Assembly (NCBI RefSeq): GCF_002113885.1
Contig: NW_018407955.1
Span: 800,480 to 836,648, forward strand
Source of the DNA: Mizuhopecten yessoensis
Lineage: Eukaryota
Length of the DNA: 36,169 bases
Reading direction: 5' to 3'
Shown here: positions 3,063 through 36,169 of the stretch, piece by piece
Layout: each line of letters begins with the position of its first letter
Position numbering within the stretch: the stretch's first letter is position 1
Program-made: the position numbers and the translations under genes
The notes under the pieces: model-generated
The model's input: the letters and a program-made list of their open reading frames with translations, nothing else
Told to the model about the DNA's origin: nothing
Databases searched by the model: none

Positions 3063-3414
3063 CTGTTGATGCAGGTAAAAATATTTGATAAATACACCTG
3101 TCTCAACTAAAAACAGAAAAACACTCATCTCAAAAATAAAGTTGGATATTATTTTATGGTTACAGTTCAGTTATAAATAAAGTTTTGACCATGTCAACAA
3201 ATGTCTTTTCTTCTTAATGAATTTTTAAAACTATTCCCAGGATCTCCTTTTTAACCCTGATCATCTGAAGAGTGACAGTTAAGTCATTTTACATGAGATA
3301 CATAATTATTCATTACAACAAGAAATGGCAATTGTACATTAAAATCATGTATAACTCATTATGATATACCGGTACATACAAATTGTTGAAGTTGTCTCCC
3401 TTAAACATCTTTAA

Positions 3415-3497
3415 CTCATTCACCCCTGAAATTTCATAATAAACTATACCAACCTTTGAATTGGAAGAGTTCAAATGTGTCTTCAGGGGTGAATGAG
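3415..3497. mobile_element. TTAA-flanked hairpin mini-element (20-bp TIR ctcattcacccctgaa.. / ..ttcaggggtgaatgag), copy Z1
   Basis: TTAA at 3411-3414 and 3498-3501. The same element appears at 35021-35102. Related copies lie at 11704-11769, 26712-26808 and 18660-18735. Confidence 0.65.
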
Positions 3498-3536
3498 TTA
3501 ATCAATGAGATGTCCCTCTTCACTCTTTCTGTACCG

Positions 3537-3655
3537 TTGTCGTGTACACACGACAACGTGTACACACAACAATAAAATGTCATCCTGGTCTCCGTTGTTG
3601 TGTACAGACGACAAAATAATGGGCCGTCTAATGCGTTGTCGTGTACACACGACAA
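3537..3655. repeat. Tandem array of 20-bp near-palindromic units (ttgtcgtgtacacacgacaa x3-4), next to mini-element Z1
   Basis: Units at 3537-3556, 3557-3572 (partial), 3595-3614 and 3636-3655. Each can form a hairpin. Confidence 0.7.
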
Positions 3656-4194
3656 GAGACGTTGGTGTAACCTGTCTTGTGTTTAGCTGGTTATCGCACA
3701 CGACTGTCGCATAATACAATTAATTGTCGCTAAAATCAGCACTAATCAGTTGGAAAGAAATATTTTTATAGGTGCAGAGTACAGAATTTTCCTTAAGTGA
3801 CCTATTGTTTTCAAATTTGCCACAAGATGTTTGCGTTTGGTGTCTCAAATAGAATCAAGATGGTGGCAACTTTATTCAATATGAACACTGGTAAATTCAT
3901 CACAAAATATTTATGGACACTTATGGAAGTAAATATGAATATTTTAATATAAGTCTTGAAAACAGGGAATTGTATTGTTTGTTACCGGACAAATGTCGAT
4001 TTCTCAGTCATAATCAGCTGCCAGTTAGTCATAATTCTGCGAAAATGAAGAAGTGTGTGTCTATGAACAACAACATGAAACAATAACAACATTTGTTCAC
4101 GTTTACCTGTTTATTTCTTGCAACAGTTACACCTCGTCTAAAAAGTACATTATTAATTTGCCATTTTGATATATGAGCGGGGGCAAGTCTAGTA

Positions 4195-4282
4195 AGGGCA
4201 TCCGGTATGGAATCTGGACCAGATTTGCGTTACGGAATCCGGACCGGAATGGCGGTACGGAATCCGGACCAGATTTGTGATA
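4195..4282. repeat. Short tandem repeat (acggaatccggacc[a/g]gat.. x3)
   Basis: ggaatctggaccagatttgcgtt / acggaatccggaccggaatggcggt / acggaatccggaccagatttgtgat. Confidence 0.6.
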
Positions 4283-5342
4283 CAGAAAGAGTTAAACATC
4301 CTAAATTAATGAGTTGTCTCCTTAAACACTCTTAATTAAGGGGTTGTCTCCCTTATATAACATTTTTATATATTTACATAATCATATGTTATTACCAGTT
4401 ATGTTGATATTCATATGTGTACTTTTAACTTAATAACCTTGTCCAAAATAATCCATTGAAAACTATTTTAAAGCTGTTTAACTGTCAAAGTATTTTGAAA
4501 AGAAAATATATGCCACATTGAGTAATCAGCATACATCCTTAAGTCAAGTTGTGTTATCTTTAATTTGATCATTTCTAAACATTACACAATGTGTAAAGTG
4601 TTTTTATCTAAAATGACAATATGAAGACATCTGTTGTGAGAAAGCAAACTTAATCTTGTTGACACAATCGTGAAGTTCGGCCTTACCTGTACAGCTGTGT
4701 TGCCAGGACAACGAAATGTTACTACATGGCCTTTCCTACGTCCCTATAATCAGGATAAAAAAATCAAATTATTGTTTTTAAACAAAATACCTGTTTAATG
4801 ACGATGCAGTTGTGTGTTTCTCATTCATGCTAAAATGTCCAAAAATAGTCTCAAATGATTGATTCATAAGAGCCAAAAATAAATATGACATTTCTTTCCA
4901 CTGTAGGAAATAACCAGCACATTAAGAGACATTTGTTTTACCTGCAGACACATAAACGAATCAGATTCCCAAATGCATGCAGTACAAAAATACATAAATT
5001 CATTTTCAATAGTTTGTTTAACTTTGTGCAAGTTTAGGATAAAGAAAAGGCCTGCTTGTTCCACTTTATATCGGCAACCAATATAATGTGGGAGACAAAA
5101 TATTGCATAATTTGTGTTTAGGTTGGTGTCCTATGCTTTAATTTCAGAACATAGAAAAAGTAGATCTGCAAAACTCATTGCAACAATGTACTTCAATGAC
5201 TCTCTGGGTAAATATCATTACCATTCACTTTACCCACAAACTTTGTTTCGCTGTGTGATCAGTTTTTGTTGGCGGTCTGTGCGTCTAGCAGAACATCTTT
5301 AAGATCAGTCTCTATATCTGGTTAACTCTGTGATCATCTTAC

Positions 5343-7509: not shown

Positions 7510-7803
7510 TTTAGTTTGTTTGTGTTTTAATTCCTATTAACAACTTTAGTCATTTAAGGACTTGCCAGATTTTTGTGGTGGAGGAAAACCGGAGTTCCCA
7601 GAGGAAACCACCAACCTAGTGTGGTAGCCAAAACCGGAAACTGCCCACCTTGGCCTTGAAACCTTAACCCATTGGTAGAGGGCTAGTGGTCACAGATGGT
7701 CAGATGCCTTAACCACTTGGCTGATATGGTCCCATGGTCAAACATATCAGCCTTAACCACTTGGCTGATATGGTCCCATGGTCAAACATATCAGTCTTCG
7801 GAA
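7510..7803 (-). mobile_element. tRNA-derived SINE copy X2 with a 44-bp tandem duplication of the head (7716-7759 / 7760-7803)
   Basis: The body at 7556-7715 aligns with 9497-9690. The unit ccttaaccacttggctgatatggtcccatggtcaaacatatcag is duplicated. Degenerate (GTTT)n tail at 7512-7528. Confidence 0.7.
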
Positions 7804-9853: not shown

Positions 9854-10817
9854 CTGCAAAACAAAATACAGAATTCTATTTTGAGTATTGTTTTTTTTTG
9901 GAGTGGTACACTGGATAACACACTCATCCTTTATTAAGACAAAAGGTTTTCAAATTCCTAATCAGACATGAGAAGGCATTTGATCATCTGCCCAGACTTT
10001 TATCTGGGTAACCTTGTTTCTTCCCTTATTAAGACCCTCTATGTGCTTTCATCCATTAACGTAGATAGGAAGTCCTTTTTCCTTATTGTTGTAAAATAAA
10101 TAAAGTTTATACAGGTTTACGAAATAAAAAAATTATCAGGAATTCAGCCCAAATGAGATCTAGACTGTTTCATAGCACCTGGACACTGGGGTACTGGTAG
10201 GAGTGGGTCGACCCCCGGTGTCGAAGGCAACCTGTGTTGACCTCTAAATAGGGTCTTTAAATGATTCGATAGACAAAGGTTTATTTCAGAACAGCCCTTT
10301 ATCTAATTATCCAGTTGTGAAGTTCAAATATATGTGATATTATTCCAGGCAAATCCTTAGAAAAAATAAGTTGTCAGTCTCAAATTCAATGTTATATGTT
10401 TGCCTTTGAAATTTTATAACAATTACACTCTAAGAGAAGTGGAATGGATACATTATCTTCAGGATTTCAACACAGTTTATTGAATAGATTTTTTATTTAT
10501 TTTATTTTATGGAATTTGATTATTATTTATTCAATCTTGTTGAATATAGCACCACCCTTTTTAAACAAATTCATCATACTCTAAGTTTCTGTAGTATACC
10601 TAGGGTTATTAAGGCGCACTCATCGTTATTTACCAGTACAGGGCAGTGGCGGATCCATAGACCTATCTGGGGGGAGGGGGGCATGTGGGGAAAACTTCAG
10701 GAAAATAGTGAAAATACATGATTTTTAAAGAAATTCTCAGGGTGGGGGGTTCCTGAAGCCCAAAAAAACCCTCTGGATCTGCCACTGCAGGGTAGAATCA
10801 AGTTTTACAACTCATGT

Positions 10818-11290
10818 GTGTTTCCACATTTTATCTACTGTAGTACTATAAGGTCTGGCTGCTCTGCAAATTTGATGGATAAATTGTTTAAAGCTCAAAA
10901 GCAGGCAGCACGTGTTATGCTTGATGTACCATATGACACACCTTCGTGTGTTATGTTTTCAGATCTAAAATGGTTACCTATTGAGGAAGTTTTTAGATTT
11001 AAGAAGCTGTGTATGTTTTACATATGTATTCATGGCAAGGTACCAAATTATTTGTGTGATAATATAACACTTGTTAAAGATGAGCACACAAGAAATACCA
11101 GACATTCAAATGCAAACAATGTTGTTGTCCCTAAGCAAAGAACTTCTTTTTATTCAAAACAATTTTAACATCTGGTGCTCAAGCTTGGAATAGTCTACCA
11201 ACTGATTTAAAAGACATTCAACATTTAAATTATTTCAGGGGCAGACTCATAAATTATTTTTTGAATTCTTAAACTATCATTTTTTTTATA
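10818..11290 (+). mobile_element. LINE ORF2 C-terminal fragment (CR1/L2-like tail) in an MVP intron
   Basis: ORF 10818..11168 reads YCSTIRSGCSANLMDKLFKAQKQAARVML...LKWLPIEEVFRFKKLCMFYICIHGKVPNYL...HTRNTRHSNANNVVVPKQRTSFYSKQF. It continues frameshifted as AWNSLPTDLKDIQHLNYFRGRL, the typical C-terminal region of CR1/L2-type ORF2. Short direct repeats (ggtggtctcttaa x3) follow at 11600-11690 and may mark the 3' terminus. Confidence 0.6.
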
Positions 11291-11703: not shown

Positions 11704-11769
11704 CCCCAAAGTCACATTTGAACCTTACCAAATCAAAGACTGGGCAAGTCCATCTTAAAAATGTAGGGG
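11704..11769. mobile_element. TTAA-flanked mini-element, related family Y (CCCCaaagtcacatttgaacc...aatgtaGGGG)
   Basis: TTAA at 11700-11703 and 11770-11773. The core aagtcacatttgaaccttaccaaatcaaagactgggcaagtcca is shared with 26735-26800 and with the rc of 18680-18735. Confidence 0.55.
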
Positions 11770-13911: not shown

Positions 13912-14372
13912 AACTTTGTCAGGACCATGAGCTGATCATTCCTAGACCAATTTTAAGTGAGATCGGCCTATTAGAACTTAGTAGCAAAATAGCGGCCATG
14001 GCAGCCAAATTGTATTTCTGATTGACCCGAAAAATAACAACACTTTGTCAGGACCATGAGGCGATCATTCCTACCAACTTTCAGTTCAATCGGTCCAGCA
14101 GAACTTGACTTTAAGTTTGAAATAGGTTTTCAAAATGGCGGCCGTGGCGGCCATATTGGATTTCTGATCGACCCGAAAAATAACAACACTTTGTCAGGAC
14201 CATGAGGCGATCATTCCTACCAACTTTCAGTTCAATCGGCCCAGCAGAACTTGACTTTAAGTTTGAAATGTAAAATGTTAACGGACGACGGATGACAGAC
14301 GACGGACGACGACGGACGAAAACGGATAGCAATAGGTCACTTGAGCTAAAGCTCAGGTGACCTAAAAAGGCA
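13912..14372 (+). repeat. Tandem-repeat element: ~146-bp unit x ~2.6 followed by an ACGG-rich tract and a terminal hairpin (aggtcacttgag..ctcaggtgacct)
   Basis: Units start at 13912, 14042 and 14188 (actttgtcaggaccatgaggcgatcattcctaccaa...). Tail 14271-14372 is acggacgacggatgacagacgacggacgacgacggacgaaaacgg + hairpin + ctaaaaa. Confidence 0.75.
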
Positions 14373-17708: not shown

Positions 17709-17949
17709 CTGAAGAAAAAAAATCACAGGGATCAGACATTATCTATCTTTTGTAGAATTGTTAAATATTTGAAAAAAAAAATTAATGTACATGTATATAT
17801 ATTCATTACCAATTATGTGAAAACATTGTTACAGTGCAAACCTCAGTCCAATGAAAGTTTTATGTCAAAGAAAGAGTCAAGAATTCATCTGTCACCCCTA
17901 CATATCAATCCCCAGTATGTTAACCTCAGTACCGTATTTCCTCTGTAGA

Positions 17950-18225: not shown

Positions 18226-18611
18226 CATCCTCGATATCCAGGGGTTACGCTCACTTTCCCTCTCTGCACCCCTGGAATATGTCATAGCAAAATTGAAGGC
18301 ATGAACATAGCTGTTTGATTGGTCTCAGGTAAACAAAACTGAACAATAGCTAGGCTGATACCTGTCCTTTGAAGATTACAAAGGCGAGCCACCTGACTTC
18401 AAAGCGGATTTAGCCTGTCAATTTTTACTGTTATGTGACCATGATATTCTTTTGATGTACATCAAACTAGTCTTCTTGTTTCAGCAACAAGGTGGGAGCT
18501 TTGTTGCAGAAACAAGAAGACTAGTTTGATGTACATCAAAAGAATATCACGGTCATTTGCTTCCAGGGGTGTAGAGAGGAAAGTGAGCATAACCCCTGGA
18601 TATTGAGGATG
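18226..18611. mobile_element. MITE copy 1 (~70-bp TIRs, internal 105-bp palindrome), in the MVP intron between exons 2 and 3
   Basis: Left TIR catcctcgatatccaggggttacgctcactttccctctctgcacccctggaa. Right TIR is its reverse complement, ending ...ccaggggtgtagagaggaaagtgagcataacccctggatattgaggatg. Degenerate 9-bp flanks tagtaatgc / cagtattgc. Perfect 40-bp inverted repeat at 18445-18549. Confidence 0.75.
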
Positions 18612-18659: not shown

Positions 18660-18735
18660 TACTTTTGTAAACTCATTCACCCCTACATTTATAAACTGGA
18701 CTTGCCCAGTCTTTGATTTGGTAGGGTTGAAATGT
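18660..18735. repeat. Family Y mini-element copy (inverted orientation)
   Basis: rc reads cctgaaagccacatttcaaccctaccaaatcaaagactgggcaagtccagtttataaatgtaggggtgaatgag. Confidence 0.5.
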
Positions 18736-22143: not shown

Positions 22144-22891
22144 ACGCCTGACAAAAGAATCAAAGTACTGTACCTAACGGAAGCAGAGACTTTTCTCTAC
22201 TGTCGGGCACAACCGGAAGTTAGAGACCCGAGGTACATAACAAGTATAATATATATACTTCCCTATAAGAACAAGAATATATACAATAAATACACATTCC
22301 AAATATACAATTATTTTTTCTTCTTATATATATACATTATTACAAGCCTTCTTGGCCAATTTTTAACCTCCCCCAACGATACAAAAACACTAGTTTCGGA
22401 CAAAGGAGTCGCCTCCAAATTTCACCAAAATATAAGGATAGGAGATAGCATAGGCGACTCCAACCCACCGCCTGAGGGAAGGCAACTACCATCGCGCCGA
22501 CAGAACATCGACTACCGTCGGTGAGATGAAACCCGCAAGGGCGGATTCATGTAGGCGCTAAACCCTTCAACCAACCAACCGTCTCCGTGTCATAGGAGGA
22601 TAGCGAGGACTACACTAAGGACGTCGTTCCGTGGACCGCAGTAGCTGTGAGTGACAGCCTGTCCACATCTGAGGAGCTGTCCGACCTCAGGGCGTGACCT
22701 GGATGGGCAGGACTTTAGAATCTCCGAGGGCCTGGTAAGCGGCAACTTACCCCCTCACGTCGACCAAACAGTGAAGTGTAGACGTAAAACCCATCAACCA
22801 ACCTACCAACCGTCTCTGTGTTTCGTCTGCTGGACAATCGAACTACTCGGTAATGAAGCGGACGTAAATCCAATTAATCAATTAATCAATT

Positions 22892-22927
<36 letters not shown>
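22144..22927 (+). mobile_element. Putative retroelement insertion with an (AATC)n 3' tail, interrupting a duplicated ~65-bp segment
   Basis: A GC-rich body with an internal repeat (aacccttcaaccaaccaaccgtctccgtgt / aacccatcaaccaacctaccaaccgtctctgtgt) ends in (CAAT/AATC)n at 22871-22927. The flanks 22104-22143 and 22932-22955 match the continuous sequence 21573-21640. Confidence 0.4.
22871..22927. repeat. (AATC)n / (CAATTAAT)n microsatellite
   Basis: caattaatcaattaatcaattaatcaatcaatcaatcaatcaatcaatc. Confidence 0.95.
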
Positions 22928-23353: not shown

Positions 23354-24540
23354 TTACAGATAGCTGCACAGTTTCATAGAGAACAGATGTGCAATGATAA
23401 GACAGGCCGTTCCATATATCCACGGTTCGGTGAAGGAATGAGTGTTTCCGGATAATTTGAGTTCGTGTCCTCTGGTGGTGGTGGTGGTGGTGGTGTTCTT
23501 GTTAGGTTTGATGAAAGTCGACACCTCGGGATCATACTTCTCGGTCATGATTTTATATAGTTCTATCATGTCTCCTCTGGCTCTTCGATATGCCAATGTT
23601 GGTAATTTCAGGCGTTGAAGTCTCTCGGGGTAGGATAGATTAGCCATTCCGGGTATTAGCTTGGTAGCTCTCCTTTGTACATTTTCTATCGATTCTATCT
23701 GTTTAATGAGATGGGGGCTCCAGACTTGGTTGACATACTCTAGATGTGGTCTCACAAGTCCTTTGTATACAGCTGTGAATGTTGTCAGATCCATGTATTC
23801 CATAGTACGCCTTATTACACCCATTATAGAGTTGGCTTTGTTGATTTTTTCAGATATATGTACATTAAATGCTAATTTGTTGTCAATGGTGACTCCAATA
23901 TCTTTCTCATGTTCTGTATAGGGAAGTTCTTTCCCATCATCTAGGTTGTAGGTGAAGTTGTCAATATCACTGTTGCCAATTCGCATTGCTTTGCATTTGT
24001 CTTGGTGGAAAAATAGAAGCCACTTTTTGTTCCATGATTGAGCTTTCAGCAGGTCTTCCTGTAGGCCCTCGCAATCTTGGGTGTTACATATAGCACGGTA
24101 GAATTTTGTGTCATCTGCGAAAAGGTATGTGTTGGTTTCCGTACTTGTTATATTCGGGAGGTCATTTACAAATAGGACTGGGCCTAGGACGGATCCTTGT
24201 GGAATACCACTGCTCACCTCCTTCCAACATGACGTGTCTCCATTTATTGTTACGCGTTGTTTGCGATTTAGAAGAAAGGCTTTAATCCAGCTCGTGATTT
24301 TACCCGTAAATCCGTACATGCTCATTTTATGGACGAGTCGGTGGTGAGGGACCTTGTCAAATGCTTTCATAAAGTCACAGTACAGCACATCAATGCATCC
24401 TCCTGCATTACATCAAGAATTTATTTTCATCCAGTGGTTAATTACTTGAATTAACTGTAATACAGTTGATCTTTCTTGGATAAACCCAAATTGTTTCTTG
24501 CTGAATAATTGCTGCATAGGGACAGTGAAATAATGAACGC
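23354..24540 (-). mobile_element. CR1/L2-like non-LTR retrotransposon (LINE) fragment. Reverse transcriptase domain, 5'-truncated, one in-frame stop.
   Basis: ORF 23354..24388(-) has RT motifs LYCDFMKAFDKVPH, GIPQGSVLGPVLF and FADD, and the CR1-type C-terminal motif RLQRLKLPTLAYRRARGDMIELYKI. The frame continues upstream (QQLFSKKQFGFIQERSTVLQL) across a TGA near 24410. No endonuclease domain upstream. (GGT)7 encodes poly-Thr near the C-terminus (23471-23492). Confidence 0.85.
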
Positions 24541-25919
24541 ACTCAAAACGCATTCTTCGGTTCGTGGAATCGGAACGGTCGCTTTTGAAACAAGAAGTGA
24601 ATGAAATGAAATATGAACGAGTAAATTACAACGTTCTGGTTCACATATCTAAACATACCGGTAACATGATCAATGGTTCAGATCCGGGGAGTCCCGGGTG
24701 ACGGCTCGGGTGGCGGGGGCATAAGCTCTTAACTCAGCCTCACCATTACCTAATCATAAATGCTCCGACCCGACCCCATCTAGATCAGTCTGCGTGCAAA
24801 TTATTTCAGGACAGGACACAGATGTCGGTTACTCACATATGGTGAACCATTTGGCCCAGTCGGCTACCGGAGGGCCGGGTACACGCCATATCCTATTCAT
24901 GAAATTTCTTTTGGTGGGCGTGTTTTTAGCGGTCGTCTGGCAAACTATCGCGGTCCAAAGTTGTAACCGCGGAAAACCCGCGATTTAGAAAAAAAATGAC
25001 ACAGCGTTGTCCAGTACCGTATAAAGTGATGTCCGACCTGGTATTGATTTAGAATATGCAAATGTGTCTCGAGTTATTATTGTATCGTTATATTTCAGAA
25101 ATAGAGAGGGTCCGGATGATCAATCTCCCCGAGATCTGTCCCTGTTATATCAAATTATATGGTAATATACCAAGAAATATAAAACAGTGGGAATATGAGA
25201 AACGAAAATATTTAAAAATATAAACAACTGTACTTGGTACGTGGTATAAGTTACATATAATATACCACAGGGACATGAAAATTAATTACAGGGTGTATAT
25301 TTGGACATATCCTGATATGTAGGAAGTATTATGAAACGTTATAGATGTCATTGACACTCAGGTTCCTGTGTAATGTGTTATTAAATATATACGTTTCACA
25401 ATTATTTCCTGAAAGCCTTACTATACATCAGCAAAATAATATCTTCCCTGTGTATCAGTAGACGTTTTGTGTATTGTATTCCCTGTCTGATTCCTGGATT
25501 GACAGAGCTAAGTTATGGATGAGCTGACTGGTCGGGGACATGCAAACAGGGAATCAATGTTCATCTGATAAAATACCAACATGCGTGCAGAATATTAGTG
25601 GCCAGTAACGCTAGCGTCCTGCCTCCCCTCTGCCCGACATTGGTATAGTCTAAGCAGCATCTGTCTCCGCATGATGTGCAGCGGGTAGCTACACACATGG
25701 ACTGGTCTGGGGAGGGAATTCCCCAAAACATTGTGTACGGGCGATTCCGTTCGGTGCATCTGTGACCAAGTACAGTCGTCTGTTAGGCCTAACGGCTGTA
25801 GCGTGCAATAAGCATGGTGAACGGGACGTGACAATTGATGGTAACAGCTACTGGATATATAAATCAAGTATCACAAAGGTCTTCAAGAATAGGTAAGTTA
25901 CGGTGGCTCGGATGAAACG

Positions 25920-26711: not shown

Positions 26712-26808
26712 AAGGGGATACTTAACCCACTCATCCGTAAAGTCACATTTGAACCTTACCCAATCATAGACTGGGCAAGTCCACTTTTAAACATGTAGGG
26801 GTGAATAA
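26712..26808. repeat. Family Y mini-element copy
   Basis: cttaacccactcatccgtaaagtcacatttgaaccttacccaatcatagactgggcaagtccacttttaaacatgtaggggtgaataag. Confidence 0.5.
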
Positions 26809-27417
26809 GATAAAAATGTGCTGTCCATAATGCAGTCTTGCGGAGACCTAGAAAAAGGAAGGATCAGAAATGGGCCAGAGTCAAATTACTACAAGTGATG
26901 TTAAATATTTTTCTGTTTAATTTGAAATATATTTGTTCTTCATGCTGGGGTTACTGGTATTTAGACTGCAAGATAAATAGATCTGATGTCTATATGTCTT
27001 TTTTTTCTTTATTTCATGTTTCCAAATTTAACATTTAAACATGGATTTTCAGTAAATTCACAATGTGCTACTCCTTAAAAAAGACACCATTTATACAAAT
27101 ATTTCAATGCCCTGAGGCTGATGTGTGTGATACTAATAGCGAAGCTCTGCTTCAGAGCTCTAAAAATGATAGTTCATTTAAAATAAATTGATTATTTTCA
27201 TGTGTTTTTTTTAACTGGACATTTTTTACATTTAGAAAAGAATCTTTAAAGACTGTGTCAATTTTGTTTTAACACACCAACTAACACCATGACTGAAACT
27301 CATGGACTCTCATAGACACCCTATGTGAGCACTGGAATTCTTTTGTCTTTGGTATAATTTGCAAACAGAAAATTATCTTAAGGATCCTTGTCCCACTGCA
27401 CTGCGGTTTTTCCTACA

Positions 27418-27883: not shown

Positions 27884-28066
27884 CACGAGCAATTTCACAA
27901 ATGAATTCCTGTTTTTGCCAGGGAAAAGATTAAAAGAATCTTCACAAATGAATTCCTGTTTTTGCCAGGGAAATGATTAAAAGAATCTTCACAAATGAAT
28001 TCCTGTTTTTGCCAGGGAATGATTTAAAGAATCTTCACAAATGAATTCTTGTTTTTGACGGAGAAA
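27884..28066. repeat. Minisatellite, ~46-bp unit x4 (tcacaaatgaattcctgtttttgccagggaaaagattaaaagaatct)
   Basis: Four consecutive units; the last is diverged. Confidence 0.85.
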
Positions 28067-28695: not shown

Positions 28696-29042
28696 CATCC
28701 TGATATCCAGGGGTTACGCTCACTTTCGCTCTCTACACCCCTGGAATATGTCATAGTAAAATTGAAGGATCAGTGTGCGCCCCCTCGCCCCCTCGTTGAT
28801 GAGACAAGAAGACTAGTTCGATCCTTTGATATACATCAAAAGAATCTCGCGGTCAGGTAATGGTAAAAAATGACAGGACAGATATCAGCCTAACGATTGG
28901 TCAGTTTTTTTTTACCTTAGACCATTCAAACAGCTATCTTCGTGCCTTCAATTTTGCTATAACATATTCCAGGGGTGTAGAGAGCGAAAGTGAGCGTAAC
29001 CCCTGGATATCGAGGAAGCGTAACCCCTGGATAGCGAGGATG
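28696..29042. mobile_element. MITE copy 2 with a perfect 9-bp target-site duplication GTCACATCA (28687-28695 and 29043-29051)
   Basis: Same TIRs as copy 1 (catcctgatatccaggggttacgctcactttcgctctctacacccctggaa ... ccaggggtgtagagagcgaaagtgagcgtaacccctggatagcgaggatg). Internal 24-bp tandem duplication in the right TIR. Identical 9-bp direct flanks. Confidence 0.8.
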
Positions 29043-29191: not shown

Positions 29192-29223
<32 letters not shown>

Positions 29224-35020: not shown

Positions 35021-35102
35021 CTCATTCATCCCTGAAGACACATTTGAATGCTTCCAATTCAATGGTTGGAATAGTTCATTATGAAATTTCAGGGTGAATG
35101 GG
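35021..35102. mobile_element. TTAA-flanked hairpin mini-element, copy Z2
   Basis: ctcattcatccctgaagacacatttgaatgcttccaattcaatggttggaatagttcattatgaaatttcagggtgaatggg, flanked by TTAT / TTAA. Aligns with the rc of 3415-3497. Confidence 0.6.
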
Positions 35103-36169
35103 TTAAGCATTATTTTGTGAAAGAGCAGTTGCCATAAGCCTTTGTCGTTAAGAAGAAAATGTCATGAAAATTGGAACCCAATTTTTTTTAGTCTTAATTG
35201 AAAGCTTTTTTTGCTTGAACTGTCAGCTTTTATTACATAATTTAGAATACTATCACTGATAGCACAAGAGGGATTTACGGTATTTCATGATATCTACCTC
35301 ATATTTTAGAAACATGATATAGGCTTGAATTTATGGCTGCCACAAGGTAAATCCGCTTGGCACAGCTAGCCCTCACCATTCCATGTAGGAAATGGTTTGG
35401 TTAATAACTTATTATTATACCGGTAATTCATCCAGGTATAAAGATTTTCCAATGCCTTGGGTCATATGTGTATGGTAAAAAAGTCGTGCGAATCAATAAT
35501 GGTCCAATTAATGGGATTTTTTGATGTCACATGAACCAAACTTGTCATATTTGAGAACAAATATGATATCCATTTCTTTAAGGAAATATGTCGCCTCTGA
35601 TGGATGAGATTGGGAAGATAGGATATACTGGGTTTCACCGACCTACCCTATAGTTCGATCTATGCATGGTTTGTCTGACGATCAGAATTGAACCACTCAT
35701 AAAAGAGTTATGATGACATTCAGGAAAAAATAGAGAGTTCCACCACTTATTTACTATATACAGATGTTAAATTAAATTAGTAATTTCTCTGTTTAATTTA
35801 CATTAAAAGCTCACCTGGTCTGAAGGAACAAGGTGAGCTTATGTCATATTGGGCGCCGGTTGTCTATCCATCCATTTGTACGTTTAGAATCCCCACCTCC
35901 TAAAAAGCTTTCAACTGAATATGTTCAAGTCAAGAGTCGAGAAGCTTTATTTAACATCGCATATACATGTAACATAATAACATTAGCACTGTAGTGCTAT
36001 TCTTGCGACAAAACATATATAAAATTTAACAAGGATCACAGTACTTATGAATATATATAAACATAAAAACAGGACAACAATTCAAATTAGATATATGCTA
36101 AAATTATACAGTAGAGCATATCATATCACACTTGAATGTCACACAAGTGTTACAAAAGACAAGTTAAGA

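Follow-up and report, generated by a model that had tools for sequence, protein, structure and literature searches.

The 36,169-nucleotide stretch of Mizuhopecten yessoensis DNA analyzed here (hereafter the window) is AT-rich (34-42% GC) and carries a major vault protein (MVP) gene of at least 15 exons on its minus strand, extending from about 18929 down to 1190. These exons were mapped with tblastn, using as queries database MVPs and a human MVP sequence, and the closest relatives of the gene are a Logan transcript (L001, 67%) and the MVP of Mytilus galloprovincialis (58%). Our subject is the region 3408-3720 and its surroundings, which an initial inspection of the letters alone (the sequence-only reading) had correctly placed in an MVP intron; the neighboring minus-strand exons are at ~4749-4684 and ~3065-2960. 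All of the elements described below (Table 1) are separated from the nearest MVP exon by some 350 nt or more, nothing suggests an effect on MVP, and the insertions are likely neutral for this gene.

Two stretches of the window resemble retroelement coding sequence. Upstream of MVP, a GC-rich block (42%) holds a 352-codon stop-to-stop frame at 23357-24412 (minus strand, together with 24416-24625, also minus) that matches Pfam RVT_1 (E 1e-16). This reverse transcriptase frame, whose nearest database relatives are 61-68% identical, is probably a LINE. Additionally, a 148-aa ORF at 10722-11165 (plus strand) resembles the C-terminal part of a retroelement ORF2 and is without a Pfam match.

Table 1. 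Elements and associated repeats, in window coordinates.
Feature	Position	Strand	Description
MITE A1	3415-3497	+	83 bp; perfect 16-nt TIRs CTCATTCACCCCTGAA; TTAA at 3411-3414 and 3498-3501
MITE A2	35021-35102	-	82 bp; flanks TTAA / ATAA (element orientation)
MITE B1	18672-~18752	+	left flank TAAA; right terminus degenerate
MITE B2	26726-26809	-	84 bp; flanks TTAT / TTAA
MITE B3	11704-11769	-	66 bp; without the outer 8 nt at either end; TTAA-CCCC...GGGG-TTAA
MITE C1	17455-17536	-	82 bp; flanks TTTA / TTAA
MITE C2	1785-1867	-	83 bp; TTAA-CCCTTTCACCCC...TAAGGG-TTAA
MITE C3	8268-8348	+	81 bp; flanks TTTA / TTAA
Larger TIR element	3523-4291	+	769 bp; flanks TTCA (3519-3522) and TTAA (4292-4295)
22-mer cluster	3535-3655		imperfectly palindromic CGTTGTCGTGTACACACGACAA; starts at 3535, 3551 (partial), 3593 and 3634
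Three tandem 25-mers	4203-4277		CGGTACGGAATCCGGACCAGATTTG; end 3 nt short of the right TIR (4281-4291)
Minisatellite part 1	3390-3414	+	end of u0 and 14 nt from the start of u1, as far as the TTAA of A1
Minisatellite part 2	3502-3522	+	remainder of u1 and first 4 nt of u2 (TTCA); between the two insertions
Minisatellite part 3	4296-4351	+	remainder of u2 and intact u3 (4322-4351)

A family of short inverted-repeat elements

An inverted-repeat element of ~82 bp is present in the window as eight discrete copies that fall into three subfamilies (two copies of A, three of B and three of C). The sequence-only reading had arrived at five. The two hairpin copies of about 82 bp that it reported, at 3415-3497 and 35021-35102, are real, and A1 and the inverted copy at 35021-35106 (A2) are 91% identical over 87 nt. 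Real, too, are the three elements that it had called related, and these prove to be co-linear with subfamily A over their whole length, although the coordinates of two of them have shifted: 18660-18735 becomes 18672-~18752, with a right boundary that is approximate because the right terminus of this copy is degenerate, and 26712-26808 becomes 26726-26809, while 11704-11769 stands. The three copies of subfamily C had been missed; C1 and C2 were recovered with a profile made from the five other copies and C3 with a terminal-motif scan, and all three share the size and terminus type of A and B (TTAA-CCCTTTCACCCC...GGG-TTAA). The eight copies are co-linear, with nhmmer E-values of 1e-16 to 5e-21, and identity inside subfamilies is 72-91% (81-89% among the B copies, 72-76% among the C copies). 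Copy length is 81-84 nt, with the exception of the 66-nt B3.

The copies start with C[C/T]N and have a common terminus, CYCWTTCACCCC, that adjoins the TTAA directly (TTAA-CYCWTTCACCCC); the 16-nt terminus is matched five times in the window at up to three mismatches, vs 0.29 matches expected. TIRs of 16-20 bp had been described, and in A1 they are indeed perfect over 16 nt and extend to 20 perfectly complementary nucleotides (TTAACTCATTCACCCCTGAA / TTCAGGGGTGAATGAGTTAA) if the TTAA is counted in; the TIRs of the remaining copies are imperfect. In each copy, homology to the others stops at the flanking TTAA or related tetranucleotide, and flanks of 300 nt, compared for seven copies (all but C3), have no similarity to one another. 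The copies lie in both orientations relative to MVP. In other words, these are short sequences with TIRs, dispersed as copies with unrelated flanks (eight in 36 kb), i.e. an ordinary MITE family.

Several smaller observations belong here. Full-length copies read TTCA-CCCC where the ends of B3 would fall, one substitution from TTAA-CCCC, and B3, a single example, may have been mobilized from such inner pseudo-ends. To the left of A1, the stretch 3343-3367 (AATCATGTATAACTCATTATGATAT) matches the A1 left junction at 83% over 18 nt and is also 79% complementary to the A1 interior at 3431-3449; it may be an older end that has decayed, or the resemblance may be due to chance. Two sites containing TCACCCCT, at 17892 and 6786, resembled extra copies and turned out to be no elements.

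The TTAA target site and its duplication

How strong is the preference for TTAA, and does the TTAA belong to the element or to the target? Seventeen flanks can be scored, nine left and eight right, from the eight MITEs and the 769-bp element discussed below, with the right end of B1 left out. Eleven of the 17 are exactly TTAA, against a background of 0.0089 in the window (binomial P ~3e-19), and all 17 are at most one mismatch from TTAA, against 0.092 of window tetramers (binomial P ~3e-18); like the copy number, this preference describes nine elements in one 36-kb window. The flanks that the sequence-only reading gave are correct, namely TTAA on both sides of A1 and of B3 and TTAT...TTAA on the plus strand for A2. 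Its proposal of a TTAA target is borne out both by these flank statistics and by a 30-bp minisatellite whose units provide two paralogous empty sites; these sites also answer the second question.

Because TTAA is palindromic, complementarity of the TIRs does not by itself tell whether the tetranucleotide belongs to the duplication or to the element. The sequence directly left of A1, GTTGTCTCCCTTAAACATCT, resembles the tandem repeat of 30 bp found by TRF at 4292-4351, and the minisatellite to which both belong (unit about TTAAACAYCYTWAATTAATGAGTTGTCTCC) has been broken into three pieces by two TTAA insertions, A1 and the 769-bp element. When A1 and one TTAA (3415-3501) and the larger element and one TTAA (3523-4295) are deleted in silico, a contiguous array of 3.3 copies of the 30-mer emerges with a TRF score of 110, vs 2.0 copies and a score of 85 in the native sequence, and its three reconstructed units have a mean column identity of 85%. 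A1 occupies unit positions 11-14, at which u3 has a single TTAA (4332-4335) and u2 has TAAA; the 769-bp element occupies unit positions 1-4, at which a single TTAA is found in u1 (3401-3404) and in u3 (4322-4325). The intact sister units serve as paralogous empty sites for both insertions, and since they carry a single TTAA in register, the TTAA is a target-site duplication lying outside the element, and one was generated at each of the two insertions. BLAST with the 300-nt flanks of the same seven copies as above yielded no empty-site paralogues besides the minisatellite. Reconstruction from nested insertions can thus establish that a palindromic tetranucleotide is a target-site duplication even where only one genome is at hand.

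A probable larger element with repeats inside both ends

We take 3523-4291 to be another, larger element of the non-autonomous, TTAA-targeting kind because repeats abut both of its TIRs, because its ORFs are short only (the longest is 73 aa, and non-coding is judged here on ORF length), and because its terminal heptamer, CTCTTTC, agrees with the MITE consensus CYCWTTC. Its TIRs are perfect over 11 nt (CTCTTTCTGTA at 3523-3533 and TACAGAAAGAG at 4281-4291). Counted with the flanking tetramers, they form a 15-nt inverted repeat, TTCACTCTTTCTGTA at 3519-3533 and TACAGAAAGAGTTAA at 4281-4295, that is complementary at 14 of 15 positions and is confined, within the window, to these two junctions. 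No second copy of the 769-bp element occurs in the window.

The sequence-only reading had reported a tandem array of palindromic 20-mers immediately beside A1. Non-random repeats are certainly present (five matches vs 0.00 expected), but they are not arranged head-to-tail. Each is an imperfectly palindromic 22-mer, CGTTGTCGTGT-AC-ACACGACAACG, with 11-nt arms; those at 3535-3556 and 3634-3655 are identical, that at 3593-3614 agrees with them at 91%, and 3551-3572 is an overlapping partial copy. Their starts are spaced by 16, 42 and 41 nt and, because the spacers are unrelated, the 22-mers are not a tandem array; TRF finds in the cluster just a 2-copy 16-mer at 3541-3572. The window holds no 22-mer beyond this cluster, and the 120 bp that the cluster spans contain seven of the 14 half-site matches of the whole window. 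Nor is the cluster part of the MITE, because A2 and the other MITE copies are without adjoining 22-mers. We place it instead within the 769-bp element, where the first 22-mer begins 1 nt inside the left TIR. The 22-mers are probably the left subterminal repeats of this element, and as such they may be binding sites for its transposase; the tandem 25-mers we read as its right subterminal repeats.

Folding of the elements

The sequence-only reading had also anticipated extensive secondary structure, and folding agrees: the whole of 3400-3720 reaches -121 kcal/mol (z -8.1) and the 22-mer cluster has a z of -5.0. On the transcribed minus strand, A1 forms a hairpin with a 20-bp stem (-43.9 kcal/mol, z -8.6). 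Good folds are likewise obtained for C2 and A2 (z about -4.8) but not for B1 (z -1.8) or C1 (z -1.1). Strong folding follows from the TIRs and palindromes and is therefore no evidence of RNA function.

Which transposase superfamily?

The criteria for piggyBac are a TTAA target-site duplication, TIRs of 12-19 bp and a first triplet of the form C[C/A/T][C/A/T], classically CCC...GGG (PMC5381638). Kolobok elements and T2-MITEs likewise target TTAA and have RR termini (an AGGRR motif), with all full-length XKol starting with AG (PMC6004289). Here, the first triplets of the scoreable termini are CTC, CCC, CCA and CTT, always a C followed by a pyrimidine, and the right ends are GAG or GGG. These triplets, the TTAA duplication and the 16-nt TIR of A1 all fit piggyBac; the 11-nt TIR of the 769-bp element falls slightly short of the 12-19 range and is borderline, and the left flank of this element is TTCA, not TTAA. 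For Kolobok, the TTAA duplication is present, but the terminal RR (AG or AGGRR) is not, because the scoreable termini begin with C-pyrimidine. The sequence-only reading had named both superfamilies as models; the terminus speaks for the former and against the latter. The enzyme that mobilizes these elements is most likely a piggyBac-superfamily transposase.

We searched for this enzyme and for further copies of the elements. A Pfam scan of the 10 longest ORFs of the window returned no transposase gene, only the LINE reverse transcriptase. Exact-pattern scans of IMG/VR, JGI metagenomes and GTDB genomes gave no real match, and the five JGI metagenome loci that did fit a pattern are unrelated bacterial palindromes and satellites. 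An unrelated 22-kb ENA locus (L002) contains no MITE copies, and a full-text literature search with terminal sequences including CYCWTTCACCCC found unrelated primers only.

Comparison with known systems brings out both likenesses and differences. Like the MITEs of the piggyBac superfamily, of which human MER85 and MER75 are examples, the window elements are small and non-coding, duplicate TTAA, have short TIRs of the form C[C/T]N...NGG/GAG, form hairpins and come as several subfamilies in one genome; unlike them, the ~82-bp family stands at the small end of MITE sizes, and B3 uses inner CCCC/GGGG ends. A coral CMITE family has been linked to piggyBac-like transposons as well (PMC2872659). The ends of piggyBac itself (IFP2) consist of a 13-bp TIR and 19-bp subterminal repeats at 3 and 31 bp (PMC5381638). 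The 769-bp element is similar in that its ends are asymmetric and a short TIR is followed on the left, 1 nt on, by a repeat of ~22 bp. It differs in that its left repeats are palindromic and present in 3-4 copies and in that its two ends carry different subterminal repeats, the right end having another, tandem 25-mer rather than the left repeat inverted, whereas piggyBac has the same 19-bp repeat at both. Xenopus Kolobok T2-MITEs share the TTAA target, the MITE size class and the many subfamilies (PMC6004289), but their termini are AGGRR or RR where those of the window elements are CYC. Finally, the tandem-repeat-containing MITEs of bivalves (Donax trunculus, cited in PMC10294476), which we liken by description, are non-autonomous and hold internal short repeats, as does the 769-bp element.

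Taken together, we consider it quite probable that the window contains eight TTAA MITEs, most likely of piggyBac type, and a 769-bp relative holding the 22-mers, with independent insertions into the minisatellite. The MITEs would be non-coding deletion derivatives in three related subfamilies, and their excision and pasting into TTAA, with duplication of that tetranucleotide, would be the work of a transposase whose gene lies elsewhere in the genome. The 769-bp element would be a non-autonomous element of the same TTAA-targeting type, its CTCTTTC terminus resembling that of the MITEs, and the 22-mers directly inside its left terminal repeat would be probable subterminal repeats and candidate sites for transposase binding. 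A1 and the 769-bp element would each have entered a TTAA site of the 30-bp minisatellite in the MVP intron independently. No new biology is needed in this reading to account for the palindrome cluster and for the split in the minisatellite, and the reading provides three MITE subfamilies and a 769-bp relative, all with exact boundaries, as seeds for a repeat library of the host genome.

Alternative explanations

Might another enzyme class be responsible? As far as the TTAA flanks go, Kolobok-superfamily MITEs like the Xenopus T2-MITEs would fit as well as piggyBac, and in molluscs Kolobok is almost exclusively bivalve, the bivalves having 43 curated autonomous consensus elements vs 27 for piggyBac (PMC10294476). 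We nonetheless judge a Kolobok origin very unlikely, given that 17 of 17 scoreable termini start with C, vs RR/AG in Kolobok (PMC6004289). Among the DNA transposon groups curated in bivalves, Tc1/mariner is the most abundant (PMC10294476), and a TA is central in every flank, so that one could picture MITEs of the Tc1/mariner type (Stowaway-like) that duplicate TA and have an A-initial terminus (ACTCATTC...). That idea is ruled out because a TA duplication would leave positions -4 and +4 outside, yet -4 is T and +4 is A throughout the 17 scoreable flanks (chance about 0.32^17), and the minisatellite empty sites show 4 nt duplicated, not 2; we regard it as extremely improbable. The sequence-only reading had itself raised the possibility that the copies come from inside a longer SINE, to which can be added some other repeat or a conserved functional RNA hairpin such as a miRNA precursor. 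The very stable folds and weak Rfam matches to miRNA precursor models would suit a functional hairpin. Yet Rfam gives no match at the gathering threshold in the whole window, the sub-threshold matches (to miRNA precursors and generic hairpins) score 19-22 bits against thresholds of 101-211 (best 21.6 vs 101), and the elements stand in both orientations relative to MVP. As for a SINE, a tRNA scan found no tRNA-like head, the homology ends at TTAA, and the flanks of the seven tested copies share nothing. Readings of this kind are highly improbable.

A different question is whether the 22-mers and the 769-bp unit belong together at all. The cluster could be independent, consisting of dimeric host-factor sites or a local duplication, and the 769-bp "element" could be a chance short inverted repeat: neither the 22-mer nor the unit recurs elsewhere in the window, the TIR is short at 11 nt, and two 22-mers are 100% identical with their CpGs intact, which could reflect constraint. 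Against this, the ends of the inverted repeat, bounded by TTCA and TTAA, coincide exactly with the two points at which the minisatellite is broken, removal of the segment restores the array in register, the repeats abut the TIRs at 1 nt and 3 nt, and the terminal heptamer matches the MITE consensus. We think independence unlikely and keep to the 769-bp element as the home of the 22-mers. At the other extreme, the 769-bp element and the MITEs would both come from an undescribed piggyBac-like lineage in which the transposase would read clustered palindromic 22-mers (CGTTGTCGTGTACACACGACAACG) by the TIR, the termini would be nested (outer CYCWTTCA, inner TT(C/A)A-CCCC), and B3 would have been mobilized from the inner ends, and near-perfect hairpins in the intron could incidentally feed small-RNA pathways from the MVP pre-mRNA; this more elaborate picture we find quite unlikely.

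Other repeats in the window

A separate foldback, or long-TIR, repeat family is represented at 18226-18611 and 28702-29011, with flanks that are not obviously TTAA. The former has terminal arms of ~52 nt (91-94% complementary) and an inner palindrome at 18436-18555 with 55-nt arms (96%), and the latter has 67-nt arms (97%). MITE B1 lies 60 nt from the copy at 18226-18611. TRF additionally reports a 146-bp unit in two copies at 13985-14269 (94% matches), a 47-bp unit in 3.5 copies at 27894-28057 (96%), a 44-bp unit in 2.1 copies at 7706-7798 (97%), a run of 30 C at 29193-29222 and (CAAT)14 at 22871-22927.
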